This document shows positions 324 to 22,162 of a stretch of DNA of 22,162 nucleotides, in pieces. Below the pieces are notes generated by a model. The model saw only the letters and a list, made by a program, of their open reading frames with translations. It made no database searches and had not been told where the DNA came from. The stretch's first letter is position 1; each line of letters starts with the position of its first letter. Both the position numbers and the translations under genes were made by a program. The DNA lies in IMG/VR virus record IMGVR_UViG_2711768033_000004. One strand, written 5' to 3'. The stretch is from a virus (Duplodnaviria; Heunggongvirae; Uroviricota; Caudoviricetes).

Positions 324-1166
324 ATGACATATCGTAGTGATGTTCAGCCCGAAACTTTTGTGGACAACTCTCGAGAATTGGTTACTGAAACACTTGCCTA
401 CTCGCTTGCCACTGAAGAGCAAAAAATACTCCTGACAGATATCTTCGAGTCTGTGGCGCGAAGGATCGAACTTTTTGTTCCAGATACAGCGATCCAGAAG
501 CGTTTCGGGCGGACTTTGTTAGGTATTGATCAAGCGTTGGCAATCGAATCATGGGTCACTACAAATGCAAATGCACTCGAGGGAGCAACCTCTGCCGATC
601 ACCTGTTTGATATGCTATGGCCGCTTTTAGTACTCTTATCTAATGAAAAACGGTTGAGCGACATAGTTCCTAATGGGGCACTTAAGAAATTAGCATTGGG
701 GTGGCTGGCTGGAGATTCGTTTGCAGCTCTCGTTCAACGGCTTGACAAATTGGGTGCATCCTATCCCTATGGTGCGAACCAAAGAAAATTTGATCTTGAT
801 GTGGTTGTAGACCTGTGTGAACAAACATTTGGCTTTGAGTTTGCGCTGTTGCTCGCAGCGGTAAAGGAATCCTTTCTCGCGTTCTCTTCAGAACAGGCGG
901 GTGAGGTTTTTAGAGAATATGTTGATCTTCTTCAGAAGCGATTGAAATATGGACTTCCGAATCAGAGTTGCATTGCCTTTTTTGAAGCGGGATTTGCTGA
1001 ACGCGTAATTGCCCAGTGTCTTGCAGAAGGAACGACTCAAGGTGCTATTCAAGTTAGTTTTGACGCCCGACACATGATTCGACAAAACCCAGAGAGATTT
1101 GAAGTAATGCTACAAGGCTTCCCATCTTATTTTTTTGATGTATTTAAAACAATCACTGCACCTTGA
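324..1166 (+). CDS. hypothetical protein (280 aa), possibly the 3' remnant of a gene truncated by IS1
   Basis: 843-nt ORF. Its reading frame is open all the way back to the IS1 terminal repeat (no stop between 285 and 324) and there is no convincing Shine-Dalgarno before ATG 324. I recognise no motif. Confidence 0.5.
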   Translation: MTYRSDVQPETFVDNSRELVTETLAYSLATEEQKILLTDIFESVARRIELFVPDTAIQKRFGRTLLGIDQALAIESWVTTNANALEGATSADHLFDMLWPLLVLLSNEKRLSDIVPNGALKKLALGWLAGDSFAALVQRLDKLGASYPYGANQRKFDLDVVVDLCEQTFGFEFALLLAAVKESFLAFSSEQAGEVFREYVDLLQKRLKYGLPNQSCIAFFEAGFAERVIAQCLAEGTTQGAIQVSFDARHMIRQNPERFEVMLQGFPSYFFDVFKTITAP

Positions 1167-1566: not shown

Positions 1567-2946
1567 TCAGCTCCGACCATCGTAGAGTTTGGCGATTTCC
1601 GTTGCAGCTTTCTCTATACCCGGATAAACCGTGCTTTCGTTGATGCCGAAGCGGCTGAGCTGCTGCATCAGGCGTTCCTTGTTTCTAATCACCAGTTTTC
1701 TGACGTTCAGCGTACTTAGCCCCGTTTCTGGCAGGTCCACGTTTTCGCCAAATAAGAGGAACGCTCCAGCCTGAGACGAAATGCGGGCGTTGCTGAACCG
1801 CCCTTTAACTAGAACGATTTTACTCAGATGTGCCGGATCGATAATGTTTTTGAAATAGGACTTCTCATCACGGATCAGATGAAGCAACTGCCCGCACTCT
1901 TCGGTGGCATTAAATGCCTGAGTCGCCAAGCTGGTATTCAGGTTGCTTTTGATACGTGATGGAAGCCGGGAAAGATTGGCTATACAACTTACAGTATCGG
2001 AGTCGAAAAACTTAATTTCACTTTTGGGTGCCGTCAATATAATGACGTTGCCATCAATTTCATTTCCATCTTTATCTCGTTTGATTTTGGAACACGCGAA
2101 ATAGAGTGCGATGAGCGGGTTAGTTGAGACGTCAAGCAGGCGGGTGGGTAAGCCGTAATGTTGCATGCGTACAAGCTTATCCAGCATATAGCGGTCATCT
2201 CTGAACTCGGCAGGTTGAACCGTCAGCAACTCGGTAATCATATCCGACTCGTGATATCGGTAGCGATAGTTGCCCTGCGTATTCTTGCGGAACAGCGAAG
2301 GTTCTAACTGATAGCTGATGTCGGAGTGACCCCGGTAAAACACCTCTTCATTATTTTCCTGAGGATGATTCAGTATGATTTCCAGATATTCATTGATATC
2401 CGAAATTACCTCAAGGTCTTCATTATTGTCAGGTGCTTCGGTTTTAACCGCAGCGGAAGCTTCAGGGGCTTTTACACTGATACCTAATATTTCGAAAAAT
2501 TCTTTAACGTCTATATCTTTGACTGCCCAGAAATTTCTGTTCAGTCCGAAGCTGCCCAGTTCCAGCTTCTTCACGTATTCTTTTTCACTGGTTAAGAATT
2601 TTTTGCCGATAATATCGGTTAAGTCATAGTTAAAAGCGAGAACTTTTTCCCGGTTTATAGTTTTTGTTCTGATGTTACTTATTCTCCCAATGCGGATATG
2701 ACTGTAATAACCGCCTGTATTGCCTTCCTCATCAACTTCAAACTCCGGCTCTGTCATAAAGATGACCGGCAGTTCCTGAAGAAACTGATAGGTTTTGCTG
2801 GTCAGGGGGAGCAGTTTCTTTCTGAGTGAGTCAGGGGTGGATTCAAAAAGCCGGGAAACTGGAAAAGACTCTTCACCCTTACTGTCAGAGAAGAAACTGT
2901 AATAATCGGGATTACCGACCACGATAAGGTTCAACATGCATGTCAT
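1567..2946 (-). CDS. FRG-domain protein (459 aa) with an unassigned N-terminal domain of about 200 aa
   Basis: Long ORF. The C-terminal half carries the FRG-domain signature FYRGHSD...YQLEPSLFR...MQHYGLPTRLLDVSTNPLIALYFA. AGGA lies 8 nt before the second in-frame ATG (about 2937), which may be the real start. Confidence 0.7.
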   Translation of the reverse strand: MTCMLNLIVVGNPDYYSFFSDSKGEESFPVSRLFESTPDSLRKKLLPLTSKTYQFLQELPVIFMTEPEFEVDEEGNTGGYYSHIRIGRISNIRTKTINREKVLAFNYDLTDIIGKKFLTSEKEYVKKLELGSFGLNRNFWAVKDIDVKEFFEILGISVKAPEASAAVKTEAPDNNEDLEVISDINEYLEIILNHPQENNEEVFYRGHSDISYQLEPSLFRKNTQGNYRYRYHESDMITELLTVQPAEFRDDRYMLDKLVRMQHYGLPTRLLDVSTNPLIALYFACSKIKRDKDGNEIDGNVIILTAPKSEIKFFDSDTVSCIANLSRLPSRIKSNLNTSLATQAFNATEECGQLLHLIRDEKSYFKNIIDPAHLSKIVLVKGRFSNARISSQAGAFLLFGENVDLPETGLSTLNVRKLVIRNKERLMQQLSRFGINESTVYPGIEKAATEIAKLYDGRS

Positions 2947-3450: not shown

Positions 3451-3470
3451 GATGGTGCCGATAATAGGAG
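3451..3470. repeat. att-site direct repeat (gatggtgccgataataggag); 18 nt are the complement of the tRNA-Thr 3' end
   Basis: 20/20 identity with 16112-16131. It includes the complement of ...CTCCTATTATCGGCACCA, the acceptor 3' strand plus CCA. Confidence 0.6.
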
Positions 3471-3571
3471 CAAAACATGCACATAACAAACTGAAAAACA
3501 AGAAAATAATAATTTATTTAAAATGATATGCCCCCATACATGCCCCACAATTTAGTTCCATTTACAGCTCT

Positions 3572-3681
3572 GGAAGCATGGGAAGCATGGGAAGCATGGG
3601 AAGCATGGGAAGCATGGGAAGCATGGGAAGCATGGGAAGCATGGGAAGCATGGGAAGCATGGGAAGCATGGGAAGCATGGG
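3572..3681. repeat. perfect tandem repeat, 9-bp unit GGAAGCATG x 12 (plus 2 nt)
   Basis: Counted directly in the sequence: twelve identical consecutive units with no degenerate copies. No stop codon in any frame on either strand. Confidence 0.95.
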
Positions 3682-3951
3682 CGTAGGTGTGGCCAGTTTC
3701 TCAACATCAGGTGTGTAAGCACCACAAGCTGTTCTGGTTAAGCTATAAACAGCTAGCAACTACTCTCAACTGAACCTGAAAGCTCCTTCTCCTGCTTAAC
3801 AGGATCGGATCTTAAGCAAATTTATTAACTTAAGTTTAAGCAATTAAGCCGATTTCAGATCCAGCGAAATCGTATTACTGCCAACGCAAAAACACATCAA
3901 CAATAATAACGTAAGTATTTTGAAACTGACCACAGTTATATTTCTATCAGA

Positions 3952-5970
3952 TTAATAACTTTCTTTCAATTCTTTTTTCTCAATCATCTTTACAAGATCT
4001 AACTCATCCCACTTGACAAACCAATAAGTTTTGAGCATAGATTGCAGATCGCTCTCAATTTCCAAATGGCTTCTATTCACATTTTTCTCATATTTTTTGA
4101 GATATTTTCTGTACAAAAATCGTCTTGTCTCAATTGAAACAAATGGGCAAGACATAACATCCAAGAATAAATGTGCCTTTTCCGATGATTGTAATAAATC
4201 CATATCAGGATATAGCAAATCTTTAATTCTAACCTCAACAATATGTTTAAGTTCTTGATAAGGTTTTCTATTTCTAAAATAGAATAATAATGAGATTATT
4301 GTAAAGTAATCCAATTTCTTTTTATGTATAATACCATTAAAGAAAGAAGTGCTTACAAGATAATTACCCCCAAAAAAAGTAGCAGCTAATATCAAATTAA
4401 CTTTCTCTATGGAAATAAACCCATCAATAAAAAGACCATTGTCATTTTCACCAAAATTGATATTTTCAGCAGTATCTATTAATGTTGTCATAAAAATACT
4501 GCTATAATCACTTGAAAGCATTTTCAAATAATCATTAACGATAACCATTGTTTTTGATAATTTATATGAAGATGACACAGTTGGGTTAACACTGAAGAAA
4601 AACAACATTATATCAGTTACTAAAAATATAATATCTTTAATATTCTTACGTATTTCAACATCACCTTTAATCTTTTCCACCGGAAAGAAATCAATAATTA
4701 ATATTAATCTTTTTGATAATGAAGATATCAGATACGAGGAAATATCCGTGTAAGAAACCTTGTTATCAACACATATAGACTTGATATTATTTATCATATT
4801 CACTTTTAAATCATGCTTGCTTCTAATCTTATTTAGAAAAATGTCACCATCAATCCTTTTATATAATTTACCTTCAAGATTCCGCACTAGTTCGTTAACT
4901 TTAATGATCAATCCTGTCTTGCTAGTGCAGAATGGCCTAGAATATTTTTTAAGTTTATTGATATTTAACTGAAGATTAAAATCATTTAGCTTCACGTTAA
5001 TGGTTTTAGTGATAAGTTCAGCATTTGCTTCATTGTTGCAAAACACTATAAAATCATCCACATACCTTAATATCACATAGTCCTCGTGATTAACCCACCC
5101 GTATTCATCAAAAAGATTTGATTCAATACTACAATCGATACGCTGGAATATTAACTCAGCAAAGACCCGACTAAATTCTGAGCCTATAGGTATACCATTA
5201 GTTTCATTATTATTACTACGTTGCATCAACGTATCTAGTTCCTGACCAAATTGATTGCTATATTTCACATGTTTTCTGATGTAAGGTTTATTTTTTAAAG
5301 CCCATGAAATAGAATGAGTATATATACTATCAAAACAATGTGATACATCTAACATCCACATTATTGAGAATCTTTTCTCAAGATCAAAAAACATTTTACT
5401 TTGAAATAACTTATATATCCTATTAAATCCGCCATAAGAAAAATAAGATGATGAATACTTCCTCATTAATTCATCATTTGTTGTTTCAATATCCTCTCCT
5501 TTATATTTCTCTGAGGCATTATTTTCATATAAGAAGAATGAGTTTGCGACCTTTCGAGGATATCTTATAGAGTAATTACTTTTTGACGCATTTAATGTTA
5601 TAACAGTTGAGTAATTTTTATAAAACTCACAATAATTAAGTTGCGATCTGGGATGAATTAAAGAAAGATATCTTAAACTAAAAGCATCCTTGACAATGCA
5701 ATAGCCAAACGGAAAGCTTTGTTTCTTCTTTTCTTTTTCTCGTTCTTCTATTTTTATAGACAAATCAAAAGCAGGATTAATAATTTTCTTTACGAATGAA
5801 GAAAGGGGAGAGAAATACAAAATCTCCTTATAATGATTTTCAAACTCGGTCAGGTTCAAATACAATCCATCATTTGAAAAGATGATGGGACAGTCACCTG
5901 GTTGCGTATCACATAGTAAAGCCCTGAGGTAATCCTTCTTATCAAGTTTTACATTTTTCTTTATAGCCAT
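3952..5970 (-). CDS. reverse transcriptase with a long C-terminal extension (672 aa); second gene of the RT pair, UG/Abi-type, DRT3-like
   Basis: RT motif A WMLDVSHCFDSI, motif B GIPIGSEFSRVFAELIF, motif C LRYVDDFIVFC. About 350 aa of helical-looking sequence follow motif C. The start overlaps the upstream RT gene by 10 nt. Confidence 0.85.
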   Translation of the reverse strand: MAIKKNVKLDKKDYLRALLCDTQPGDCPIIFSNDGLYLNLTEFENHYKEILYFSPLSSFVKKIINPAFDLSIKIEEREKEKKKQSFPFGYCIVKDAFSLRYLSLIHPRSQLNYCEFYKNYSTVITLNASKSNYSIRYPRKVANSFFLYENNASEKYKGEDIETTNDELMRKYSSSYFSYGGFNRIYKLFQSKMFFDLEKRFSIMWMLDVSHCFDSIYTHSISWALKNKPYIRKHVKYSNQFGQELDTLMQRSNNNETNGIPIGSEFSRVFAELIFQRIDCSIESNLFDEYGWVNHEDYVILRYVDDFIVFCNNEANAELITKTINVKLNDFNLQLNINKLKKYSRPFCTSKTGLIIKVNELVRNLEGKLYKRIDGDIFLNKIRSKHDLKVNMINNIKSICVDNKVSYTDISSYLISSLSKRLILIIDFFPVEKIKGDVEIRKNIKDIIFLVTDIMLFFFSVNPTVSSSYKLSKTMVIVNDYLKMLSSDYSSIFMTTLIDTAENINFGENDNGLFIDGFISIEKVNLILAATFFGGNYLVSTSFFNGIIHKKKLDYFTIISLLFYFRNRKPYQELKHIVEVRIKDLLYPDMDLLQSSEKAHLFLDVMSCPFVSIETRRFLYRKYLKKYEKNVNRSHLEIESDLQSMLKTYWFVKWDELDLVKMIEKKELKESY

Positions 5971-7238
5971 ATTTTTGTGATCTCAGTGTAACGTTTGAAA
6001 TTGTACTTCCTATAAACTCTATCAACAAAACCTTTTCTAAAACTATTGCGCAATAACTCCTTTCTTTGGTTTACAGTGAAGGAATGTTTCGCAATACTAT
6101 GCAAACGTCCGTTGTTCGATTTAACACAATATAATAAAAAATCATCTAATTGCTTTAAGGATATAGAATTTACATCCAATCTTGCATTACTATAATAAAT
6201 TCCAGTACTAACCTTACCTTTCTCTAATGAACTTAATGATCTAATCTTCCTATTTAAATCTCTATTGCTTGTTAAAAAAGAAATTCTATCTAATAACAAT
6301 TTAAAATCACCAGTTCTATGGTAGGAGTAGAAAGCTCTTGCTATTCTAGTTTTAATTTTTTTTATGCGTCCACGAGATAAATCTACAGTTACTTTTCTAT
6401 ATACACTTAAAGTAGCACCTTTGTTACTTAGAGGAGAATCTATTACAGAAAAAGAGTAACCTAAAAAATCAAATTTATGGAGTAATTTATCTTTACCTGC
6501 CGTGCCTTTGCTTCTTTTGTCGATAAGTGGGGACACCTTCAACTTATTTGTATTTAAACTTAATCCCTTGGGTAACAAACTTTGTATTTGTTTCATTAAA
6601 GTCGATGGGCATTCATTTCCACTTGAAATGATCACCATATCATCTACAAAGCGAGAGTAATAAAACACTTCTGAATGCCGATGAATACTACTATCAAATG
6701 CTGCCAAATATAGCTCAGATAACATAGGACTAATCTCCAGTCCTCTTGGCAAACCTTTTGATGAATGGATTCTTTCACAAGCTTTAAGATACCATTCTAT
6801 CAAATTTTTAGTATGTCTGGATAAACGCCGTTCATCTTGCAAATATTGAAAGAGCTGAGGCAAATCGATAGATTCAAAAAAAGATTTTATATCTAAGCGA
6901 TACACTCGGAATTGTGCACCTTCTTTGAGATAAATTTTAAGCTCATCAATTATTTTATTTCTTTGTTTGGGTAGAAGTGACTCCAAACATTTTAAGTTTG
7001 CATTACAATGTCTAAGTATTAGTTTTTCTTTTAAACAAGATGCGTTGTAAACACAACGTCCTTTGATATTTATTTTCTTTACAGTTACTCCAGAACGAAA
7101 ATTTTCGCTGGCAATTAAAACAGCATCACTGATTAATGATTCTAATTTATCCACATTGTTTTTATTAAAATAAAAACTCTTCTCACTTTCACTCAAGTTA
7201 CGCTTAAGTGCTGATGAAGTAAATGGCTGCCGGTTCAT
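5961..7238 (-). CDS. reverse transcriptase (about 425 aa); first gene of the RT pair
   Basis: Motif A YRLDIKSFFESI, motif B GLPRGLEISPMLSELYL, motif C YSRFVDDMVIIS, LGYSF motif. The ORF track extends to 7322 with a non-ATG start, but ATG at 7238 is preceded by GAGGGGGG, so I prefer that start. Confidence 0.85.
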   Translation of the reverse strand: MNRQPFTSSALKRNLSESEKSFYFNKNNVDKLESLISDAVLIASENFRSGVTVKKINIKGRCVYNASCLKEKLILRHCNANLKCLESLLPKQRNKIIDELKIYLKEGAQFRVYRLDIKSFFESIDLPQLFQYLQDERRLSRHTKNLIEWYLKACERIHSSKGLPRGLEISPMLSELYLAAFDSSIHRHSEVFYYSRFVDDMVIISSGNECPSTLMKQIQSLLPKGLSLNTNKLKVSPLIDKRSKGTAGKDKLLHKFDFLGYSFSVIDSPLSNKGATLSVYRKVTVDLSRGRIKKIKTRIARAFYSYHRTGDFKLLLDRISFLTSNRDLNRKIRSLSSLEKGKVSTGIYYSNARLDVNSISLKQLDDFLLYCVKSNNGRLHSIAKHSFTVNQRKELLRNSFRKGFVDRVYRKYNFKRYTEITKIWL

Positions 7239-7637
7239 AACCCCCCTCACAGTACTATCCTTTATGCTTTTATAACTCTTTACATCGTTGCGCGCAATCG
7301 CATCCTCGCTACACTTGACCACTTAATGTAATAGTTTCAGTCACCTGCATGAAATTGTGTAGGCCACGCTGACAAGTTGGCGGCTCGCTGGTCCCCACCG
7401 CATAATATGGGCATCATCCCTAACAATACTGGCGGTTTTAGCGATATGGGAAGATCCAGACTCTTATTTGTTCACATTTAATTGATATCTCTGCAGGTGC
7501 GAAGAAAAGATGATCAACATCGAACCATACGATTTAGGATACCAAAAAGTAGCGAATCTCCCCCAGCAACACTTACATCTATTGAAACTGACTGAGTTTC
7601 GCGAATTGCGCCAGAATTGACCATTTAGCCCTACCAC

Positions 7638-7656
7638 GTGCGCAGCCCCGCCCGCC
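7638..7656. other. cos-like sequence (candidate P2/P4-type cohesive end site)
   Basis: The reverse complement GGCGGGCGGGGCTGCGCAC resembles the P2/P4 cohesive end GGCGAGGCGGGGAAAGCAC as I recall it, and it sits immediately downstream of the Delta-like gene where cos is expected. The match is approximate. Confidence 0.3.
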
Positions 7657-7856
7657 TACCCATTTCGCTTAACAGAATGGTTTTCATGCACCCCGTAAAT
7701 CGTCTCAGGAACCGCAACACAAGGGCTTTCGCGTCAAAATTGGTGCATGGAACTCATGCGTTTTCATGCGCCATAGACATGCACTCATACGTCCTCAAGC
7801 CAGCCAAGAAAAGGCGTAAAAATCCCGGCTCAGGACCGGGAGTATGTAGGGGAGAA

Positions 7857-8129
7857 TCAGACAGGGATTTGTTGGCGGCTGGAAAGCTTGGATGCAGAGC
7901 CATAGCGATTCAGTGTCTGCCCTTTTTTGTCTGTAGCCTCCTCTACTGTCTGCGTATTCTCTTCTTTCTGCGGGCGGGTGATAATGGTATGCACTGATTC
8001 AAGCGCCGTAAAAGTGCTTGAACATTCCAGATTCTGGCACTGGTAGTACGTTTTCTTTACAGAGGGGGCTTCGTACACACTGGCTCGACAATGTGCAATG
8101 GCTGAACAGAAAGGACATTTCAATGCCAT
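7857..8129 (-). CDS. Ogr/Delta-family zinc-finger late transcription activator (90 aa)
   Basis: CPFC...YYQCQNLECSSTF matches the Ogr/Delta Cys4 zinc-finger pattern. GGAGGG lies 8 nt upstream. The start overlaps the upstream gene's stop (TGATG). Confidence 0.8.
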   Translation of the reverse strand: MALKCPFCSAIAHCRASVYEAPSVKKTYYQCQNLECSSTFTALESVHTIITRPQKEENTQTVEEATDKKGQTLNRYGSASKLSSRQQIPV

Positions 8130-8890
8130 CAGATACCCTCCGCAGCTCGGTTACGTTTTTGTAGTTCCTCACGTTCCTGCCGGATCTTCATTTTATGAAG
8201 GGCTGCCGGAGAAGGAATTTTGCGGAAATCAGCAAGAGCTGCATAATCCGGGGCAACTCCCGCCAGTTTAAACACCGGGTCCTGTTCAGGCATCGCATCG
8301 TTAGCCAGAGCCGGTCTGGTGATATGTTTATGAATAAAGTCTTTCAGCACTGTGTCCGGGTCATTAACTGAATTCACCACACCCACAACAGCACTGGCTT
8401 CCCGGCCCATTGTTGATTTAAGCAGGCTCAGCGTCTGAATAAGCGCTTTTCCATGCGACTGCATGAAGTCTTCCCAGATTTGCTTTGCGCGAATTTCCAC
8501 AAGGGTGTTATGTGCGCTGATATACTGCCCGGCTAATTTCCCGGCTTCCTGCGGTAATAATGCATTTTCGCTTTCCTGAGCAGTCAGCAGCTCATCAAAA
8601 TCCTCAAGCGTTTCACGCCCCAGCGCAATTTCCGTACGCAGTTTTTTCATTTCCTTTGAGACTACGCCCTGACTTTCACGAAACAGCGTGCGCCACTCCT
8701 CATTCAGCGCGTTAGTCGTGGCTTCCATTTCAGCGCGGCGCTGGCGGATTGTCGCAATATTATCCGCTGCCGCTTTCTGCTGACGACGTGCTTCAAGCCA
8801 TGCGTTTCTGGCTGTGTTCATGGTTTCCAGTGCCCGCTGCGTTACAGCCGGAAAAGAGGAAAGATTGTTATTCACTGCGGTGTTGTTCAT
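8129..8890 (-). CDS. putative Sid-like capsid size-determination / scaffold protein (253 aa)
   Basis: Long ORF translationally coupled to the Delta-like gene, sitting in the position of P4 sid and of similar size. The product call is positional inference only. Confidence 0.4.
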   Translation of the reverse strand: MNNTAVNNNLSSFPAVTQRALETMNTARNAWLEARRQQKAAADNIATIRQRRAEMEATTNALNEEWRTLFRESQGVVSKEMKKLRTEIALGRETLEDFDELLTAQESENALLPQEAGKLAGQYISAHNTLVEIRAKQIWEDFMQSHGKALIQTLSLLKSTMGREASAVVGVVNSVNDPDTVLKDFIHKHITRPALANDAMPEQDPVFKLAGVAPDYAALADFRKIPSPAALHKMKIRQEREELQKRNRAAEGI

Positions 8891-9068
8891 GACTTCTCCT
8901 GTCGGGTTGATTCGTTACGTAAATTGTGTCGTGGCTGACACAAGCACACTATCGGTGCTCAGTGTATGGTGGCTGGCACAACGCGCGATTGCGGTTATTC
9001 AGACGTGGCTATGAAAGCCAGCCAGATAAAAATGCCCTCTGTTTCAGTCTGCTGTATGTCCCTTATGC

Positions 9069-9256
9069 GGTGGAACAGGTGAAACATGTGTTACTGCTTT
9101 GTTTTGTAAAGCATTTATATGCACTGCACCGGTGGAACATCGCGGGTAACAAGGTGGAACAGCGGATTGGCTGGCGTTACATCTGTTCCACCTCACTATT
9201 TCAGAAGGTGGAACAGGTTCAGCCCTGTAAAATACGGTTGTTCCACCTGTTTCACC
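9069..9256. repeat. iteron cluster: about 8 copies of GGTG(G/A)AACA in both orientations (candidate replication origin, crr-like)
   Basis: Copies at 9069, 9078, 9131, 9153 and 9207 on the + strand, and inverted at 9184, 9239 and 9248, immediately downstream of the primase gene. P4 ori/crr carry comparable TGTTCACC-type iterons bound by the alpha protein. Confidence 0.65.
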
Positions 9257-9290
9257 TGTTACCCTTAATAAATAAGACTCACGCAAAGCC

Positions 9291-11963
9291 TTAACCCGGC
9301 ACCTTGCTGTTGAAGACATAGAGCCTGCGGGGATTCATCTCTGGCGGGCGAATGGTTGTCTGGAGTTTGCCATCAGTGGAGGGGAGCAGGTATCCACGAT
9401 CTGCGCACAGACGCGCCACCTTGCGCGGGTCAAATCCCCTGCAGATTTCTTTCCAGCCGGACGGCATGACATAGAACGTAGTGACAGCTTCCGTGCCCTG
9501 CGCGGTACTGCCTTTCTCCACCCTGCGCCAGCCCACCATATTGCCGGGGCGGTTGCGCTCGTCATACCAGTCTGCAAAGCGGCTGTACTGATTCGCGGTA
9601 AAGAAACTGCGAACCTGCTCCAGTGCGGCAATATCTTCCTGATTGGCGGTGTGCCCGCGATCTTTCAGCCATGCGTTCAGGCAGACGCGGGTTGCCCGCA
9701 GTGCTTCACCCTCAGGCCAGCCGGTGATACCCAGACGGGTTGCCAGTTCACCCGCCATCGCCACCAGTGCAAAGCGATTCACAGCCCGGCCCACCTGATT
9801 GCCTGCATCTTTCGGAGTCAGGGCGGCAGCATATTCCTTCATCAGCGATTTTGCCTGTGCCGTTAGTCCATTAAGATCAGCGGTCAGTACTTTCAGCCAC
9901 TCCCGGAACGGCGAACCGTAGTAGCAGGACGTGGCCCATTCAAGATGCTCTGCCAGAGCCTTGCCGCTGTCGAAGCCGTGCAGTTCCTCAAAAACGCCAA
10001 ATTTCCCGGAATCGCTGGGGATCTGGATCATCCTGACTTCCATCCCGGCAAAAGTACGCTCACCGGCCTTTGCCGCATGTTCGGTCAGAGACAACTCGCC
10101 AGTTGAAAAGAACAACAGGCGCCACTGCTTACGGGTACGCAGCTCACCGTCCGTACCGGCACGGCCCTTGCCCTGACCGTTTGCCAGCATGTAGGCGATA
10201 TTGCCTGCCTCGCGTCCGTCAACTTCCCGGATCTCATCAAGCATCATGGCGGCATCGTTGCGGCGGCTGGCGCATCCCTCCAGCGCGTTGCCGGTGGCCC
10301 GCCATGTCTGCCAGTAGTCAGGCCCGCCGCAGACGGAGGTTGCCGCTTTCATGGTGGTGGTCTTACCGTCTGTCGATTCCCCTTTGAGGTGGTAGCCGCC
10401 GCCGTCCATACCAACCAGCCGTAACAGTGGTGCAGCAAAGGCCAGGCTGACAGCAAATGCCACGCGGGAGTTGCCGGCACAGTAGCGGGATACGTTCTCC
10501 CGCCATTCCTCTGTTGTGCCCGACACGCGGAAATCACGCCCCTGCACGGAAGTGGTCTGGAGAATGACACCCTCTGCACCTTCACCGCTGACCTCATCCT
10601 GCAGGACGTAAACCTGACCATGCCAGCCAGTACGGCTGACGCAGGTCACGCGGCGTTCCGGTTTACACAGTGAGATATATTCCATCAGGCGTGCGCGTGC
10701 CTCGCCGGTGGTGCTGATATAAGACAGCCCGTTAACCAGCAGTACCCGGCGCAGTTCCTCACCACTGCCGCTCAGCATTTCCATCGGCATCGCCCAGCGG
10801 CGACGCTCACCCCACGTATCTTCCCATTCCAGCAGTCGTCCGAAGTTACCGCCATCGGCATCGCAGGTGATTGCCGTCACGCGCAGCGGGCTGCATATTT
10901 TGACGTTCTGGATCTCCGTCTCACCGTTGCGCTGTACCTGCTTTTCATACCAGAGATATTCCTGGGTAAGACGGAACCCGTGCGGCAGTTGCGTGCGGCC
11001 TTCCCCGCACAGTACCAGACCGTTGCGAAAGGCTTCACGGGCACGGGTAATACCGTGCTCCCGATGAAAGTCATTCCAGTCAGCCTTAATCTCTCCTGGT
11101 GGCAGCGTCATCCAGCCGCCAACAGCTTTTGCCGCCCGTTCAGCAAAGGCTCTGCCGGGATTCTCACCCCCGTCCTGAAAATCGTTATCACCGGCGATGA
11201 TAATTTTTACCTCAGGCCAGCGTGCCCGCAGCGACTGCGCCACATTGGGCAGGTTGCCCGCAGATATGGCAGCCACTACGCATCCGGCAGTGAGCTGGCT
11301 TACCGTCAGCGCCGTAGCGTAACCTTCGGTAATCACCACCTGTACCGGTGGTTCAGACGGTAACGGGATGAGCGACACAAACGCGCCTTTCATCGTGCTG
11401 CCGGGCAGTATGCTTTTTTCACCCGTCGGGGCGATAAGCTGTGCACCGGTTACGGCTCCGGTGTTGGTCGTGAGTGGTAACAGCAGGGAACCGGCAGGGA
11501 AATCCTTACCGCTGATATGCTGCACGCTTCCGGTCAGATAGGCCGGGTATCCGGCGAACCCTTTTTCTGTCAGATAGGCGCTTTCTCCCGTGTGGCTCTC
11601 TTTCATCAGCGCCGCCACGGTAAGACCCATGTCGCGTTTAGGGGCTTTTTGTCTGGCAGGCTTAACAGGCAGTTCCTGCACATCCGGCACATTAAGCACC
11701 TGCGCCACCTCCTGCGCAGCCTTTCTGACGCTGTAACCGGTTACGAGCTTAACCAGATCCAGACCATCACCATTGCCACACTGGCTGCAGATCCACGTCC
11801 CGCGCCCGTCAAGGTCATCAAGGCGAAAACGATCCTTGCCCCCACATTTCGGGCAGGGACCGTGCCTGCCGTTTTCAGGTACATCAATACGCAGCATCTG
11901 CAGAATAACGGGCCATTTCCCCCGTGCGGCGGCTGAAATCTGCGTAACCGTCTGTATTGTCAT
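9291..11963 (-). CDS. P4 alpha-like primase-helicase (890 aa): Zn-ribbon, TOPRIM, SF3-type P-loop
   Basis: N-terminal CPKCGG...CSQCGNGDG zinc ribbon; TOPRIM-like IIIAGDNDFQDGGE; Walker A GESTDGKTT. High G+C typical of the P4 backbone. Start overlaps the upstream gene (ATGA). Confidence 0.9.
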   Translation of the reverse strand: MTIQTVTQISAAARGKWPVILQMLRIDVPENGRHGPCPKCGGKDRFRLDDLDGRGTWICSQCGNGDGLDLVKLVTGYSVRKAAQEVAQVLNVPDVQELPVKPARQKAPKRDMGLTVAALMKESHTGESAYLTEKGFAGYPAYLTGSVQHISGKDFPAGSLLLPLTTNTGAVTGAQLIAPTGEKSILPGSTMKGAFVSLIPLPSEPPVQVVITEGYATALTVSQLTAGCVVAAISAGNLPNVAQSLRARWPEVKIIIAGDNDFQDGGENPGRAFAERAAKAVGGWMTLPPGEIKADWNDFHREHGITRAREAFRNGLVLCGEGRTQLPHGFRLTQEYLWYEKQVQRNGETEIQNVKICSPLRVTAITCDADGGNFGRLLEWEDTWGERRRWAMPMEMLSGSGEELRRVLLVNGLSYISTTGEARARLMEYISLCKPERRVTCVSRTGWHGQVYVLQDEVSGEGAEGVILQTTSVQGRDFRVSGTTEEWRENVSRYCAGNSRVAFAVSLAFAAPLLRLVGMDGGGYHLKGESTDGKTTTMKAATSVCGGPDYWQTWRATGNALEGCASRRNDAAMMLDEIREVDGREAGNIAYMLANGQGKGRAGTDGELRTRKQWRLLFFSTGELSLTEHAAKAGERTFAGMEVRMIQIPSDSGKFGVFEELHGFDSGKALAEHLEWATSCYYGSPFREWLKVLTADLNGLTAQAKSLMKEYAAALTPKDAGNQVGRAVNRFALVAMAGELATRLGITGWPEGEALRATRVCLNAWLKDRGHTANQEDIAALEQVRSFFTANQYSRFADWYDERNRPGNMVGWRRVEKGSTAQGTEAVTTFYVMPSGWKEICRGFDPRKVARLCADRGYLLPSTDGKLQTTIRPPEMNPRRLYVFNSKVPG

Positions 11964-12343
11964 ACTTCCCCCTCATACAACGTCACACCGGTACTGCAGA
12001 AGTCATCAAAGGCCGCCGGAAGCGTGCGGTACATCTCCGCCATCACTTCACAGCCGCGCGCGGTCAGTACCGGCGGTGCGGTCAGCAGTGACGGCTCCAG
12101 CATGTCAGTCAGCAGTGCCAGCGCGGCAGCGGCGCCCTGCACTTCGCCGTACTCGTTAATCAGTACGCACTCGATATGCAGCGCAATGGCCATTTCAATA
12201 CGCTCCACCGTCAGGCTGTGCGGACCATACTGATCACTGCCAGTTTCGTTCAGCATTTTCTGCCGCCATGCTGAAGCAATAGCTCGCCGGTAAAGCGCGG
12301 TGGTCATTTCTGCCGGGAAAATGGAAACCTGCGGCTGGTTCAT
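11960..12343 (-). CDS. hypothetical P4-like operon protein (127 aa)
   Basis: ORF in the primase operon with 4-nt overlaps to both neighbours. Confidence 0.55.
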   Translation of the reverse strand: MNQPQVSIFPAEMTTALYRRAIASAWRQKMLNETGSDQYGPHSLTVERIEMAIALHIECVLINEYGEVQGAAAALALLTDMLEPSLLTAPPVLTARGCEVMAEMYRTLPAAFDDFCSTGVTLYEGEV

Positions 12344-12624
12344 CTGGCACCTCCTTCAATCAGTGCGCAACTGTGTGCAATATCCGTCAAATCTGCCCGC
12401 AGGTACTCCATCAGCGCGGCGACACCATGCGCACAGCCAGCGTCCAGTGCTCCGGCCTGAGACGGGTATTCAGAAAAGAGAAGCTGGAGCATGTCGCAGG
12501 CATTTCTTGCGCGGGTCAGCTTTCCGAAACTGTCCTCTGACAACCCATAGGCAAAAGCACCGGTATTGTGTTTTTCAGGCAAAGTGTGGCCCTGAGCACC
12601 GTTGTGCCCGTTTGAAATATTCAT
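12340..12624 (-). CDS. hypothetical P4-like operon protein (94 aa)
   Basis: ORF in the operon; 4-nt overlap with the downstream gene. Confidence 0.55.
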   Translation of the reverse strand: MNISNGHNGAQGHTLPEKHNTGAFAYGLSEDSFGKLTRARNACDMLQLLFSEYPSQAGALDAGCAHGVAALMEYLRADLTDIAHSCALIEGGAR

Positions 12625-12655
12625 CGTGGATTACTCCGTTTTCAGCGGTATTTTG

Positions 12656-13015
12656 TCAGAGAAACTTTGAATAGTGACCGTCGTCAGGCTCAGCAGAACG
12701 CCATATGCTACGCTCCCGCCAGCGGATAAATAGCACAGACGGATGCAGTGTCAGCGGGCCGGAACCACTACCGCCTGCAGGAGCTGGTGCAGGCTTAAAG
12801 AGCGGTACATCAAACAGGCGCGTATACCGCTGTTCAAACCATGCCAGAGGGCAGGAAGAAAGCTGGTTGTCGCTGTCATGACGTATCAGCACTTCACAGC
12901 TGAATTCAGGATTAACCAGCGCCACAGAGGGCGAGGCTTCTATTAATCGGATAATCGTGACCGTCCAGCCACGTTCATGCTGCCAGCGTTCGCCGGGGTG
13001 CGGATAATTACGCAT
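12656..13015 (-). CDS. hypothetical protein (about 119 aa)
   Basis: ORF whose ATG at 13015 overlaps the stop of the upstream small gene (ATGCGTAA). The track's longer N-terminus (to 13045) is probably not used. Confidence 0.5.
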   Translation of the reverse strand: MRNYPHPGERWQHERGWTVTIIRLIEASPSVALVNPEFSCEVLIRHDSDNQLSSCPLAWFEQRYTRLFDVPLFKPAPAPAGGSGSGPLTLHPSVLFIRWRERSIWRSAEPDDGHYSKFL

Positions 13016-13185
13016 GTTCACCTCCGCAGGGAATGCGCCCGGCAAAGCTCAGTACATAGTCCGGGGCAAGTCTGCGCCGCGCTGACCGCTCGTTATCTGC
13101 GGTGATCCTTAACATCACAGGACGGGCATTGCGTTGACTGCGGTTGATCGCCGCAAATAACCAGGTACACTTCTGTTTAGCCATC
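13008..13185 (-). CDS. small protein (58 aa), possibly Icd-like; first gene of the primase operon
   Basis: Not in the ORF track because it is under 60 aa. Translation MAKQKCTWLFAAINRSQRNARPVMLRITADNERSARRRL... with AAGAGGT about 7 nt upstream of the ATG. The Icd-like call is from memory of a similar small family and is uncertain. Confidence 0.45.
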
Positions 13186-13275
13186 TTCGTTACCTCTTAT
13201 AACGGTTGGTTAAATGCCCGATTTGTGTTCCCGCACAATCGGGCATTGCTTTTACAAGCGAACTATACTTACAAT

Positions 13276-13319
13276 GGTAATTACCATGTAGTCATCATAT
13301 TCTAGGGTAATTACCATGT
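13276..13319. promoter_or_regulatory. two copies of GGTAATTACCATGT (perfect 10-bp palindrome GGTAATTACC plus ATGT), 30 bp apart; candidate operator pair
   Basis: Copies at 13276-13289 and 13306-13319. They sit in the divergent region between the primase operon and the RHH gene, and the second copy overlaps the RHH start codon. Confidence 0.5.
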
Positions 13320-13489
13320 CAACACCACAAGAGAAACGTTCTCCACCATTCCAAATGCGTCTTACCGACGATTTTAGGTTGCAACTCGAAAACGAAATGC
13401 GCAAAGATGGAGATAGCGCGTTGGCAACTTGGATTAAAAGAATTTTACGCAAAGAACTCCAATCACGCGGGATTGACCCTAAAGGCTAA
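13316..13489 (+). CDS. small ribbon-helix-helix (Arc/CopG-like) DNA-binding protein (57 aa)
   Basis: Not in the ORF track because it is under 60 aa. Translation MSTPQEKRSPPFQMRLTDDFRLQLENEMRKDGDSALATWIKRILRKELQSRGIDPKG has a strand-helix-helix pattern. Its start lies inside the operator repeat. Confidence 0.45.
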   Translation: MSTPQEKRSPPFQMRLTDDFRLQLENEMRKDGDSALATWIKRILRKELQSRGIDPKG

Positions 13490-13521
13490 TCAGTTAAATA
13501 TTACTAACTATCAATTAAGGC

Positions 13522-13812
13522 TTAGGGAGTAGGTGATAATCTATTCCCTTTATTAATTGCTCTTGCCTTATTTCTCATTCCCTCAAAATGTTGACCTGAG
13601 TTTTCTTCAAACCCATCTCGCCACTTATAATAATCAGCAGCGCGCCATCGTGACATCCGACCTATTTTTATAGGTTTTGGAAAGCGATTCAGAGAAATCA
13701 ATCGATAAATCCATTTATCACTTAATAAACAATCGGAAGTAATAAACTTCATATCGATCAGAGAATCCATTGAAGGTCGTTGCAAAGTAGTATTATCATG
13801 TTTAGATAACAT
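13522..13812 (-). CDS. AlpA-family phage transcriptional regulator / excisionase-like protein (96 aa)
   Basis: KWIYRLISLNRFPKPIKIGRMSRWRAADYYKWRD matches the AlpA pattern (...IYRLI...FPKPIKLG.R...W...EW). GGAG lies 8 nt before the ATG. Confidence 0.7.
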   Translation of the reverse strand: MLSKHDNTTLQRPSMDSLIDMKFITSDCLLSDKWIYRLISLNRFPKPIKIGRMSRWRAADYYKWRDGFEENSGQHFEGMRNKARAINKGNRLSPTP

Positions 13813-13937
13813 TCATCATTCTCCGTTTATCTAAGTCTATTGGCTTCAACACGGAAAATTAAAACATAGGTTATAAATGAGAAAAATGTGACTAATGAAA
13901 AAAATCCAAAATCATTAGCCACAATAATTGTTAATAT

Positions 13938-14762
13938 TTAGTTAAACTTAATGTTTTTCATGCAACTACGTAGCAAACTAACAACAGTATCATAGCTCAA
14001 AGGCGGTTCTCCGGTCTTAGGCCAGAACTCACTGGCATGTTGAAAAAGATAATCAGCTATCGCTGCTGGACTCTCTCTTCTTAGCCTCATATCACGATGA
14101 TAGAGCGAAATAATAGCCATGAGTATTTCAGCTCGAGGAACAGCATGTTTTTGTTTTTGCGCCTCAGATTGTGATTTATATTTATTGGCGTTTTTTATCC
14201 GCTTTTGTTCGCATAAGACTATATCAATGAATTTTTGAATCTGTACCTTTGTAATCCACAAAACCTCAAAAAGATAATAATTTTCTTTTTCATCATAATT
14301 TACATAAAGAATTACCTTACAATTTATATTAGGCGTACCCGCCAGTAGAAAATGAATAGGCCAGGAATCCGGTTGCCCCTCATGCTTAACTAACAGATCT
14401 TTATATTCATAATCAACAGCCCATAAACCGGATATGAAACATCGAATAAAACCATTTTTATCAATTAAATTATCTTCATCAGGGATTCTTATAGAACTTA
14501 AGTCTGACAACATAATATTGCCATTTCTATCTCGTGGTAAATATTTCAGATTAGATAAGAACTCATCCATTTGACCATCAATCTTCAAACCACATGAAAC
14601 ATCATACTCATCATCATGGAATTCCATGCATAGCTCTACATCTCGTTCTCTGGCAAACCAGAGTATATCCTTTTCACTACAACCAATTTTTTCTGAAGCT
14701 TCCTCCAACTGGTAGTAATCTCTGAGCAGAGAATCAGTATTATTAATTTTTAAAATATTCAT
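13938..14762 (-). CDS. hypothetical AT-rich protein (274 aa) with a possible N-terminal HTH, translationally coupled to the integrase
   Basis: Its ATG overlaps the integrase stop (ATGA). The N-terminal segment YQLEEASEKIGCSEKDILWFARE looks HTH-like. The rest has no recognisable motif. Confidence 0.7.
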   Translation of the reverse strand: MNILKINNTDSLLRDYYQLEEASEKIGCSEKDILWFARERDVELCMEFHDDEYDVSCGLKIDGQMDEFLSNLKYLPRDRNGNIMLSDLSSIRIPDEDNLIDKNGFIRCFISGLWAVDYEYKDLLVKHEGQPDSWPIHFLLAGTPNINCKVILYVNYDEKENYYLFEVLWITKVQIQKFIDIVLCEQKRIKNANKYKSQSEAQKQKHAVPRAEILMAIISLYHRDMRLRRESPAAIADYLFQHASEFWPKTGEPPLSYDTVVSLLRSCMKNIKFN

Positions 14763-15949
14763 TTATGAGTACCAATTAGCTCAGATAAATAATTAGCATA
14801 CCATTGCATCATTTCTCTTCTCCCTTCGAGATATTGGGCATGGTTATAAATTCCACGAATAGAGTTTTTGTCCGAATGAGCAAGCTGGGTTTCAATCCAA
14901 GCGCTGTTAAATCCTTTCTCATGTAGGATTGTACTCATCGTATGCCTGAAACCATGCCCCGTAACACGCCCTGCATATCCAATACGTTTAAACACCTGAT
15001 TAATGCTTGCTTCACTCATAAATTTGCTAGGATCGTTGCGTCCAGGGAACATCAGCGGGTAGTTCCCAGTTAGTTCTTTCAAACTTTTGAGATGGGATAA
15101 TGCTTGTTTTGACAACGGGACAATATGGCTCCTACGCATTTTCATACGTTCTTTTGGGATCTCCCACACCGCATTATCAAAATCCACCTCTCGCCACTCA
15201 CCTGCTCGTAGTTCTCCAGTTCGTAGACCTGTCAGGATAAGTAAATGCGCCCCCAACAATACAATTGGACTTCCTGAATAAGAATTAAGGGCATTAAAGA
15301 ACTCCGGTAGTTCGTTGGCTTTGAGGAATGGATAGTGGACTGCTTCATGTCCTTGCATCGCACTGGCAAGATCCGGTGCCGGATTGTAGATTGCCCTACC
15401 CGTTACGATGGCATAGCGAAAAACTTCACCGCATCGCTGACGGACTTTCTTCGCTTTCTCCATAGCGCCTCGAGTTTCTATCAACCTCAGAACTTCAAGC
15501 AGTTCAAGGGGCTGAATATCAGCTATAGGTCTGTGCCCAATATGCGGGAAAATGTCTTTCTCGAATGCCTCAATGATGTCGGAAGCATAGCCCTCAGACC
15601 ATTTGGGTGATTTCATTTTGTGCCACTCTAACGCCACTTCTCTGAATGGGTTAAGTGTCTCAATCGCTGCATTTAAAGCCTGCTTTTTGGCTTTTTTGAC
15701 TTCGCCGGGATCTTCACCTGCTGCGAGTAGTTTCTTCGCGTCTTCTCGTTTTTGTCTGGCATCAGCAAGTGTGACTGTTGGATAAACACCAAAGGACAAT
15801 CGTTTCTCTTTACCAGCAAAACGGTATTTCATACGCCAGTAACGCGAGCCATTAGGTTCGACCTGAAGGTATAGGCCACCTCCATCAAACAGCTTGTAGC
15901 TCTTCTCTTTTCCTTTCGCAGCTTCAACCTTGCGGGCATTCAGCATCAT
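14759..15949 (-). CDS. P4-type tyrosine integrase
   Basis: Begins MMLNARKVEAAKGKEKSYKLFDGGGLYLQV, typical of a P4-family integrase N-terminus, with the catalytic region ...HGFRHT... It lies about 165 bp from the tRNA 3' fragment. The track's longer ORF starts at a TTG (16018); I prefer ATG 15949. Confidence 0.9.
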   Translation of the reverse strand: MMLNARKVEAAKGKEKSYKLFDGGGLYLQVEPNGSRYWRMKYRFAGKEKRLSFGVYPTVTLADARQKREDAKKLLAAGEDPGEVKKAKKQALNAAIETLNPFREVALEWHKMKSPKWSEGYASDIIEAFEKDIFPHIGHRPIADIQPLELLEVLRLIETRGAMEKAKKVRQRCGEVFRYAIVTGRAIYNPAPDLASAMQGHEAVHYPFLKANELPEFFNALNSYSGSPIVLLGAHLLILTGLRTGELRAGEWREVDFDNAVWEIPKERMKMRRSHIVPLSKQALSHLKSLKELTGNYPLMFPGRNDPSKFMSEASINQVFKRIGYAGRVTGHGFRHTMSTILHEKGFNSAWIETQLAHSDKNSIRGIYNHAQYLEGRREMMQWYANYLSELIGTHK

Positions 15950-22081: not shown

Positions 22082-22162
22082 GGTAGATCTCCCTGGCAAA
22101 AGCAGGAATGATGCCATTTGCTCGTTATTTCTGCATTTTCATAAACGTTGGTTTGGGAGAAG

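Follow-up and report, generated by a model that had tools for sequence, protein, structure and literature searches.

The Metis/PUA-Cal-HAD system (MisA-MisB) carries a PUA-like domain that senses m6dAMP from phage degradation of host DNA, and it provides a precedent for a PUA-like sensor that drives NAD+/nucleotide depletion; its PUA family has also been reported fused to TIR and HEPN domains (bioRxiv 10.1101/2025.11.05.686725, 10.64898/2026.01.15.699771). In VcaM4I, an N-terminal reader with a positively charged DNA-binding face is followed by a linker and a C-terminal effector (PMC7897488). FRG proteins, frequently encoded in bacterial genomes and in prophage hotspots, have been placed by the Aravind group (as the ‘Frg’ clade) in the ADP-ribosyltransferase (ART) superfamily and are predicted to act as NADase-type antiviral effectors (PMC9503650, PMC12522546). 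The literature searched yielded no experiments on any FRG protein, only annotations and these predictions, and no published activity, trigger or structure for PDC-S15/FRG. An earlier note on the DNA described here had called FRG a domain without well-established function; this stands as far as biochemistry is concerned, none having been found in the literature, although the ART classification and the NADase prediction mean that the domain is not wholly blank.

The window analysed here is a stretch of 22,162 nucleotides of viral (Caudoviricetes) DNA. It contains an FRG gene with the following features:

1567..2946, minus strand: longest ORF of the FRG protein in the ORF list, 459 aa
1567..2937, minus strand: CDS of the FRG protein, 456 aa from the ATG at 2937, stop codon at 1567-1569
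2476..2937, minus strand: N-terminal sensor-like domain, residues 4-157 (ORF numbering), predicted PUA-like fold, motifs FPxSRxLExT, LFMTE and R[TN][HF]WAVK
2413..2475, minus strand: inter-domain linker of variable length and sequence, residues 158-178 (pLDDT 59-75, gap-rich alignment columns)
1570..2412, minus strand: C-terminal FRG/PDC-S15 effector domain, residues 179-459 (ORF numbering)
2074..2346, minus strand: Pfam FRG (PF08867) segment, residues 201-291, hmmscan E = 6.6e-22

The 459-aa ORF is present as first described, with FYRGHSD, LEPSLFR and QHYGLPTRLLDVSTNPL. Its homologues and the RefSeq entries begin at the fourth codon (MLNLIV...), and an AAGGA element that abuts the first ATG lies 8 nt upstream of the ATG at 2937, which makes 1567..2937 (456 aa) the most likely CDS and the ATG at 2937 probably the true start. 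The surroundings had been described as AT-rich, which holds in a relative sense only and not in absolute terms (44.9% GC in the gene, 42.4% in the window). Scans for promoters and terminators near the gene gave nothing above shuffled expectation, an Rfam scan of the window gave no match, and a tRNA search of the window found none.

The C-terminal half is the better understood part of the protein. The FRG signature read from the sequence by the earlier note, and the PF08867 search that it proposed, led to a strong Pfam match (78.7 bits against a cutoff of 25), in which residues 201-291 align to profile positions 2-92 of 94. FRG is the sole Pfam match in the whole protein, and no nuclease domain was found in that scan. 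Fourteen PADLOC PDC-S15 models also match, the best (E = 1.7e-97) covering residues 175-455 and profile positions 18-296 of 300, so the conserved catalytic region, taken as the PDC-S15 extent, is larger than the Pfam FRG segment. The family phrog_4962 matches over the full length (residues 4-457, E = 3.6e-89). All three matches are far beyond chance.

Invariant residues of the FRG domain include R205, H207, Q262-H263, R269, D272, N276, N386, R388, S391 and Q392. According to the alignment and the structure model, the invariant R205 and H207 sit in FYRGH on the first strand, N276 ends an [ST][ST]N motif after the core strand 270-274, and an invariant SSQxG loop (N386-R388-S391-Q392-G394) precedes strand 395-399. 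Compared with the ART triad (R-S-E or H-Y-E, on strands 1, 2 and 5), the FRG domain has no Glu at the expected place. Gln at that catalytic place is known from NAD+ glycohydrolase toxins. The best structural neighbours of the C-terminal domain are ART toxins, namely the RES toxins ParT/VPA0770, exotoxin A and TreX. The FRG domain is probably an ADP-ribosyltransferase-like, NAD+-consuming effector.

The FRG domain was said to be preceded by about 200 residues without a known motif. The size requires correction, to about 157 aa plus a low-confidence linker of about 20 aa; the rest of the statement stands, as neither Pfam nor PDB sequences contain a recognisable sequence family. A Pfam search of 21 N-domains at E <= 10 gave no match, including to EVE (PF01878), YTH (PF04146) and ASCH (PF04266), NCBIfam returned nothing for the N-domain, and phmmer and profile searches of PDB sequences gave no match. 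Structure prediction, which had been suggested for this region, gave a model of pLDDT 91.7 and pTM 0.88 with a PUA-like beta-barrel, which can be described as a so far undescribed PUA-like sensor module common to many immune effectors. Its closest structural neighbours are the modified-base readers VcaM4I (6yex), McrB-N, PD-T4-3 (9u75) and 5mC-DNA-bound THYN1; a Foldseek search against the PDB gave no match at E <= 1e-3 and returned these same families only as weak matches. The model thus depicts what appears to be a PUA-like barrel closest to the EVE/YTH/ASCH base readers. F28, R32, E35, T37, F63, E66, R137, W140 and K143 are invariant or near-invariant in the N-domain, and these aromatic, basic and acidic positions would together form the ligand-binding site. 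In the clade of the window (16 of 238 domains), the near-invariant His of RTHWAVK is replaced by Phe (RNFW), a swap that counts against a sensor-effector reading. The family as a whole is acidic, with a median pI of 5.1 and 93% of its members net negative.

The N-domain is not confined to FRG proteins. A profile search gave 889 matches at E <= 1e-3, and the 65 longer ones that were scanned carry CAP12/PycTIR-type TIR (17), FRG (10), Pkinase (7), Abi_C (6; presumably a HEPN-type RNase domain), TIR_2 (6), SEFIR (2) and PNP_UDP_1 (2) domains, as well as SLFN, EAD2 and AbiJ_NTD3. It is therefore a separately mobile module, which precedes effectors of the TIR, SEFIR, HEPN, protein-kinase, nucleoside-phosphorylase and Schlafen types and in one case follows a CD-NTase; its occurrence before TIR and SEFIR elsewhere suggests that the effectors are interchangeable. 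The TIR fusions match the CAP12/PycTIR TIR family and the PADLOC CBASS ‘Effector TIR’ models, and the PNP fusions match the CBASS ‘PN-superfamily’ effector model over its C-terminal part only. The CD-NTase case is a single example, protein P0247, in which a DncV-like NTase, the N-domain and FRG are joined in one ORF; this fusion points to a small-molecule ligand for the N-domain. None of the 18 Pfam families matching the 65 fusion proteins is a DNA nuclease family (HNH, PD-(D/E)xK or GIY-YIG). A link to the validated system PD-T4-6 was considered and rejected, as the PD-T4-6 HMM matches in the N-domain-kinase fusions cover the kinase domain only.

These fusions bear on the possibility that the protein is a type IV-restriction-like reader, whose N-domain would flip out a modified base in phage DNA (5hmC, glucosyl-hmC or m6A) or in RNA, as in EVE-HNH enzymes and PD-T4-3, while its FRG domain would ADP-ribosylate nucleic acid in the manner of DarT, with no NAD+ depletion. 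ART-fold enzymes can modify DNA, as DarT does. The best structural neighbours of the N-domain are readers of modified DNA or RNA bases that serve modification-dependent restriction, THYN1 being bound to 5mC DNA, and the order of reader, linker and effector is the same as in VcaM4I (PMC7897488). However, the acidity of the N-domain family contrasts with the positively charged DNA-binding face of VcaM4I, its partners are mostly NAD+-/nucleotide-targeting, kinase and RNase effectors of abortive infection with no DNA nuclease family among them, and the CD-NTase fusion favours a small ligand over a base in DNA. We therefore regard a type IV-like reader as unlikely.

More than 5000 homologues of the FRG protein were found. 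The best 120 are mostly of about 450 aa with 99% coverage, and their hosts include Enterobacterales, Aeromonas, Rhizobium and Sphingomonas; an alignment of 34 sequences has 74 invariant columns. The description of the gene as stand-alone agrees with nine different homologue neighbourhoods, which share no common partner gene, and the neighbourhood analysis that the earlier note had proposed showed no conserved housekeeping operon among them. Seven of the nine are prophage hotspots or defence islands, and in the other two the gene is inserted singly between unrelated housekeeping genes; the nine are a small sample rather than a statistical test. In P2_2H1, the FRG gene lies at the right end after gpA, in the P2 gpA-gpQ hotspot, and FRG is entered 16 times in the hotspot table of the study that defined this site (PMC9122126). 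A Klebsiella P2-like prophage has a homologue between its tail-fibre and sheath genes, a second P2 site. Homologues also occupy lambdoid moron sites; in the lambdoid phage Tritos, the homologue is found between the replication genes and Q, and others are located at the ends of lambdoid prophages. The island of the Rhizobium homologue also contains a DNA methylase, PLD, UvrD and AIPR, and that of a Morganellaceae homologue contains Fic and DUF87. Membership of PDC-S15 and the two P2 locations, the gpA-gpQ hotspot and the tail-fibre/sheath site, all support the suggestion that this is a single-gene conflict or defence protein.

The gene might instead have no anti-phage role: it could serve mobile elements as an addiction or toxin module, encode an ART toxin used in virulence or against other bacteria, or regulate NAD/nucleotide metabolism while hitch-hiking on such elements. 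We consider this distinctly unlikely: the gene recurs at known defence-gene positions, the neighbourhoods have no small antitoxin or immunity gene beside it in common, Pfam finds no known secretion-related domain, and the partners of the N-domain are nearly always effector families typical of immunity.

It is more improbable still that the protein is an orphan CBASS/Pycsar effector, an add-on whose N-domain would respond to a second messenger supplied in trans by a CBASS/Pycsar-type cyclase encoded at another locus. The TIR and PNP fusions, in which the N-domain stands where CBASS/Pycsar-type effectors have their sensor part, are consistent with such a role, as is the one protein in which the N-domain and FRG are fused to a DncV-like NTase. 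Nonetheless, no CD-NTase or pyrimidine cyclase was found in the nine neighbourhoods or, by PADLOC, among the larger ORFs of the window, and in prophage hotspots, whose systems are as a rule self-contained (PMC9122126), the gene occurs on its own.

The immediate surroundings of the gene in the window are as follows:

18-284 (approximately 1-300): IS1 fragment, which truncates hamB; IS1 is annotated at the same spot in H13-H17
324..1166, plus strand: 3′ remnant of hamB (Hachiman), truncated by IS1, C-terminal 280 aa, PADLOC HamB E = 8.4e-69, profile positions 766-1036 of 1037
3453..3470, plus strand: 18-bp att repeat TGGTGCCGATAATAGGAG, 3′ end of thrW (tRNA-Thr), with a second copy at 16114-16131

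The gene had been placed between an IS1-truncated ORF and an att remnant, outside the satellite, and both placements are correct. The two exact copies of the att 18-mer in the window compare with 0.02 expected, and the repeat is identical to the tRNA-Thr end in E. coli WAT. Their positions delimit a P4-like satellite at 3471-16131, which carries DRT3, so that the FRG gene at 1567-2946 lies outside it; the copy at 3453-3470 is the right boundary of the FRG-bearing island and the left boundary of the satellite. On one side, the FRG gene has the convergent hamB remnant 400 bp away, and on the other side it is flanked by non-coding DNA. The intact order HamA-HamB-FRG-tRNA-Thr is found in E. coli WAT, at the end of an ICE at thrW. 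Although the gene sits directly downstream of hamAB at thrW in WAT and 16 other genomes, and the window keeps the 3′ end of hamB, a role as an accessory component of Hachiman (HamA-HamB-FRG) is very improbable, given that the two genes are convergent and 400 bp apart, that Hachiman is absent from the eight other homologue neighbourhoods (three phages among them), and that IS1 has destroyed Hachiman in the window, where the FRG ORF remains whole and matches copies elsewhere at 99-100% identity. Orientation and lack of co-occurrence thus speak against any functional link between the two, which was rejected.

The gene encodes an intact, conserved two-domain FRG/PDC-S15 protein without conserved partner genes. 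We lean towards the view that it is an autonomous one-protein sensor-effector factor of immunity by abortive infection, carried as cargo on mobile elements, and the FRG gene of this phage-defence island is most likely a one-protein anti-phage system, as a candidate judged from sequence. In the mechanism that we propose, the N-domain would bind a nucleotide-type cue of infection, either a free (possibly modified) nucleotide or a modified base; one example would be a modified mononucleotide freed during turnover of host or phage DNA. Binding may relieve autoinhibition of the C-terminal FRG domain, whose predicted ART fold would then consume NAD+ or, less likely, ADP-ribosylate a target, and phage replication would be stopped at the cost of the infected cell. 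This logic would parallel that of Metis/PUA-Cal-HAD, with a different sensor family, a different effector and no HAD ‘clean-up’ partner.

A broader reading is offered tentatively, as a possibility that we find rather doubtful. The N-domain may be an undescribed PUA-like nucleotide-sensor family, a plug-in module that sets off immune effectors of at least eight classes, among them FRG, TIR of three kinds, SEFIR, HEPN, Ser/Thr kinases, Schlafen and nucleoside phosphorylase; the E. coli FRG protein would then be a one-gene system in which detection of a phage-generated nucleotide leads to FRG-catalysed destruction of NAD+. If the two-domain reading is true, this 1.4 kb gene, native to E. coli and easily cloned, could yield the first biochemistry of an FRG/ART-like protein. 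Identification of one ligand would explain the triggers of many TIR, SEFIR, HEPN, kinase and nucleosidase defence proteins, and would test whether sensing the nucleotide by-products of infection, as in Metis, is a general strategy. A nucleotide sensor here would be a second, independent lineage of ‘metabolite-of-infection’ sensing beside Metis. If the protein is inactive or an ordinary toxin, it is merely another annotated FRG gene in a defence island.

Among known systems, the closest by sequence is PDC-S15/Pfam FRG. The C-terminal 285 residues match the PDC-S15 models end to end, and both are single-gene units in defence contexts; the models leave the N-terminal 175 residues uncovered, and PDC-S15 is a candidate defence family only. 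Unlike the type IV enzymes (VcaM4I, EVE-HNH, 6yex; PD-T4-3, 9u75; McrB N-domains), the FRG protein has no nuclease domain, and its N-domain is acidic, lacks sequence similarity to EVE/YTH/ASCH and is partnered with abortive-infection enzymes rather than DNases. It differs from CBASS/Pycsar effectors in having no cognate CD-NTase or pyrimidine cyclase in the homologue neighbourhoods or among the window ORFs scanned, with one distant homologue carrying a fused DncV-like NTase, and from Hachiman in having no conserved operonic association with hamA/hamB. Among the NAD+-depleting TIR/SEFIR/SIR2 modules, TIR and SEFIR domains of other proteins are preceded by the same N-domain, and the ART-fold toxins (RES ParT/VPA0770, exotoxin A, TreX) are the best structural neighbours of the C-domain.

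The comparison with Metis reaches across both domains. MisA-type PUA domains (n = 11) were recovered from genome contigs by means of the VWWGWW motif. The MisA motifs VWWGWWxKxxE(xxP) and TPxYY are absent from the N-domain, and hhalign comparisons of N-domain profiles with the 11 MisA-type PUA domains gave probabilities of 0.1-0.3%, equal to those of a calcineurin-domain negative control. The superficial likeness of RTHWAVK to RTIWFVR is therefore not evidence of homology, and was rejected as such. The absence of a partner that could buffer basal ligand, as there is in Metis, counts against a sensor-effector reading. Metis also differs in its effector, which is calcineurin-like rather than FRG, and in its HAD/MisB partner, for which the FRG protein has no counterpart. 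What the two share is an N-terminal PUA-like sensor joined to a C-terminal enzyme whose activity (predicted here) depletes NAD+ or nucleotides, and sensor families that are both acidic (median pI 6.0 in the 11 MisA-type domains sampled). As judged from these profile comparisons, the FRG protein is analogous, not homologous, to Metis/PUA-Cal-HAD.

The FRG gene is a real, intact, conserved and stand-alone FRG/PDC-S15 gene with a two-domain architecture. It was listed as a 459-codon ORF on the minus strand (1567..2946), in which the motifs read in the earlier note, FYRGHSD, LEPSLFR and QHYGLPTRLLDVSTNPL, are all present, and its proposed FRG identity was borne out by a Pfam match to PF08867 at residues 201-291 (E = 6.6e-22; 78.7 bits against a cutoff of 25). 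Fourteen PADLOC models of PDC-S15, classed there as a phage-defence candidate, match the protein as well (top E = 1.7e-97, residues 175-455), and PHROGs family 4962, a family of unknown function, spans its full length (residues 4-457, E = 3.6e-89); NCBIfam gave no match. The true CDS is most likely 1567..2937, since identical copies in RefSeq ('FRG domain-containing protein') are 456 aa long, all homologues in a 34-sequence alignment start at the fourth codon, and AAGGA precedes that ATG by 8 nt. The GC content of the gene is 44.9%, compared with 42.4% for the window.

Four defence loci are stacked at thrW, namely a Hachiman remnant, the FRG gene, DRT3 and Avs2. The features of the locus are as follows.

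18-284: IS1 transposase fragment
324-1166: Hachiman HamB, last 280 aa (PADLOC E = 8.4e-69, profile positions 766-1036 of 1037)
1567-2946, minus strand: FRG gene
3453-3470: thrW remnant, final 18 nt only
3471-16131: P4-like satellite, bounded by two 18-bp thrW att repeats
3952-5970: Drt3b of the satellite DRT3 (PADLOC E = 4.1e-200)
5961-7322: Drt3a of the satellite DRT3 (PADLOC E = 1.1e-130)
9291-11963: 890-aa product, putative P4 alpha-type primase, judged by size and a zinc-finger motif
14759-16018: satellite integrase
16114-16131: exact second copy of the thrW remnant, just past the integrase gene
16550-21004, minus strand: Avs2 (AVAST type 2), 1484 aa (PADLOC 1751 bits), the third island segment, right of the second att repeat

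Because the thrW repeats at 3453-3470 and 16114-16131 bound the satellite, the FRG gene lies outside it, as previously proposed, and is the terminal cargo gene of the left-hand island. Hachiman is inactivated in the window: hamA and ~750 codons from the start of hamB were lost to IS1, and only the last 280 codons of hamB remain. In five complete genomes (H13-H17) the annotation shows the same IS1 insertion. E. coli WAT retains the intact order of conjugative element (trbL, trbJ, traJ), HamA, HamB, convergent FRG gene, tRNA-Thr (thrW) and proA. Among 5426 complete E. coli genomes, 139 match this region.

The satellite DRT3 system is complete (Drt3a and Drt3b). Directly downstream of drt3b, non-coding stretch 3686-3960 shares ~79-81% identity with other E. 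coli DRT3 loci, while its flanks are not conserved; it has no Rfam family and may be the DRT3 non-coding RNA that recent papers report. Just within the left end of the satellite, ~270 bp downstream of drt3b, the 9-bp unit GGAAGCATG is tandemly repeated 12.2 times with 100% matches (3572-3681). Its copy number seems to differ among strains, as the three closest E. coli loci measure 544, 454 and 481 bp against one 490-bp query. A 274-aa minus-strand ORF (13938-14762), set in DNA of low GC content (32-37%), has a 4-bp overlap with the start of the integrase gene and could be further satellite cargo, and a 196-aa ORF after Avs2 (21527-22117) looks serine recombinase/invertase-like by eye; neither has a PADLOC match.

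When 5.8 billion clustered proteins were searched, >5000 homologues reached E ≤ 1e-5. The ~450-aa two-domain layout is shared by most of the top 120, which belong to Enterobacterales, Aeromonas, Rhizobium, Sinorhizobium and Sphingomonas. The 34-sequence alignment (identity down to 43%) has 74 invariant columns, mostly in the C-terminal half; those in the N-terminal half include R32, E35, T37, E66, G131, R137, W140 and K143. The neighbourhoods differ each time. In the P2-like phage P2_2H1 the homologue follows gpA at the right end, which is the cos-proximal gpA-gpQ hotspot shown to hold anti-phage systems (Rousset et al., PMC9122126); the supplementary table of that study contains 'hypothetical + FRG + RVT_1' 16 times, as untested entries. 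Others lie between the tail-fibre and sheath genes of Klebsiella P2-like prophages, between the replication genes and Q of lambdoid phage Tritos, at lambdoid prophage ends, in a Rhizobium island with DNA methylase, PLD nuclease, UvrD helicase and AIPR, in a Morganellaceae island with Fic and DUF87, or as singletons inserted between unrelated housekeeping genes in Aeromonas and Sphingomonas. The neighbourhoods examined shared no other gene, and Hachiman was beside the homologue at thrW only. Such a pattern points to a self-contained accessory gene carried by mobile elements, not to part of a housekeeping operon. The earlier note would have been refuted by homologues lying consistently within housekeeping operons, which was not observed. 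At the Klebsiella tail-fibre/sheath site (L006-L009, ~5430-6829), a same-strand gene of 439-465 aa without a Pfam match precedes the homologue and may be another uncharacterised hotspot gene.

The main new result of the analysis concerns the N-terminal domain (N-domain, residues 4-157). Its model (residues 1-172, 21 homologues; pLDDT 91.7, pTM 0.88) has as structural neighbours the Mmi1 YTH domain (7.2), the EVE proteins PH1033 and 2ar1 (6.9), YTHDC2 (6.7), THYN1 bound to 5mC DNA (6.5) and an ASCH protein (6.2), followed further down by McrB N-domains, the 5hmC-specific PD-T4-3, Lon-N and SauUSI. The full-length AlphaFold2 model (pLDDT 83.7, pTM 0.80) returned the same list. Foldseek again pointed to such domains (YTHDF2, E = 0.14; McrB-N, Lon-like and SRA domains). 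As these matches were non-significant and the Pfam EVE, YTH and ASCH models did not match the domain, the predicted PUA-like assignment is at fold level only. The restriction enzyme VcaM4I shares its arrangement, an N-terminal reader, linker and C-terminal effector, with the FRG protein; VcaM4I grips a flipped base between W22/P24, W82 and Y130 (PMC7897488), and the conserved F28-P29, F63 and W140 of the FRG protein appear in comparable order.

Searched against 1.84 billion representatives, the N-domain profile matched 889 proteins (80 to 867 aa long) at E ≤ 1e-3, of which 231 reached E ≤ 1e-10. Pfam domains downstream of it in 65 matches of at least 256 aa were CAP12/PycTIR-type TIR (17/65), FRG (10/65), protein kinase (7/65), Abi_C (6/65), which we take to be a HEPN-type RNase domain, TIR_2 (6/65), TIR (4/65), SEFIR and PNP_UDP_1 (2/65 each), and Schlafen-AlbA_2, EAD2, AbiJ_NTD3 and FGE-sulfatase (one each of 65). 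PADLOC models for PDC-S35, CBASS 'Effector TIR', CBASS 'PN-superfamily' and PD-T4-6 cover the effector parts only, never the N-domain. P0247, a single 760-aa ORF between transposases and near a DruA gene on a 51-kb metagenomic contig (L012 6001-8283), joins a DncV-like nucleotidyltransferase, the N-domain and FRG, and would be a one-polypeptide cyclase-sensor-effector. The N-domain, with its predicted PUA-like fold, recurs widely as a module of immune proteins. Its exchange among abortive-infection effectors that target NAD+, nucleotides or RNA, taken with the cyclase fusion, speaks for the N-domain as input (sensor) module with FRG as output, and for a small nucleotide-type ligand as likelier than duplex DNA. 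Members of the N-domain family are acidic, with a median pI of 5.1 and 93% net negative, and the family has the signature SRxLE[YS]T ... LF[MA][TY]E ... R[TSN][HF]W[AGS][VI][KR]. Whereas 190 of 238 members carry R-T-H-W-x-[VI]-K, the window clade has RNFWAVK at residues 137-143 (2520-2540), with Phe in place of the otherwise near-invariant His of RTHW, a change that may alter ligand specificity.

For the C-terminal domain (residues 179-459), no solved structure related by sequence was found, and the literature searched held no biochemistry on FRG proteins. Its first strand carries the invariant FYRGH, [ST][ST]N-P follows strand 270-274, and the invariant, poorly modelled loop SNxRISSQxG precedes strand 395-399. 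These features fit the ART superfamily partly and the catalytic glutamate is absent from the expected position, so membership is plausible rather than established. Some NAD+ glycohydrolase toxins have Gln at that position. On our reading, which we hold with slight preference, this stand-alone gene of the thrW defence locus would sense a ligand through its N-domain, perform NAD+-directed catalysis through FRG and bring about abortive infection. A 1.4-kb E. coli gene makes FRG activity directly testable, and offers a route to the trigger of the TIR, SEFIR, HEPN and kinase proteins that carry the same sensor.

In outline, the FRG protein would parallel Metis (PUA-Cal-HAD), in which an N-terminal PUA-like domain binds m6dAMP from phage-degraded, Dam-methylated host DNA and so switches on a calcineurin-like enzyme that depletes NAD+ or dNTPs, with a HAD phosphatase as a required partner (bioRxiv 10.1101/2025.11.05.686725; 10.64898/2026.01.15.699771). 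The Metis PUA family is also reported to be fused to TIR, HEPN, DrHyd, HNH and McrB; neither the paper reporting these fusions nor the Koonin-group EVE survey mentions FRG. In hhalign, N-domain profiles reached a probability of 0.1-0.3% against 11 MisA-type PUA domains taken from genome contigs via the VWWGWW motif, the same level as a calcineurin-domain control. As sensor family and effector also differ and there is no partner gene, membership of Metis was rejected. A type IV restriction enzyme (no nuclease), a CBASS component (no cyclase nearby) and a Hachiman component (no co-occurrence away from thrW) were likewise rejected. Since the FRG gene family is already catalogued, the proposed pairing of a PUA-like sensor with a nucleotide or NAD+ effector is of a known kind rather than a new category.
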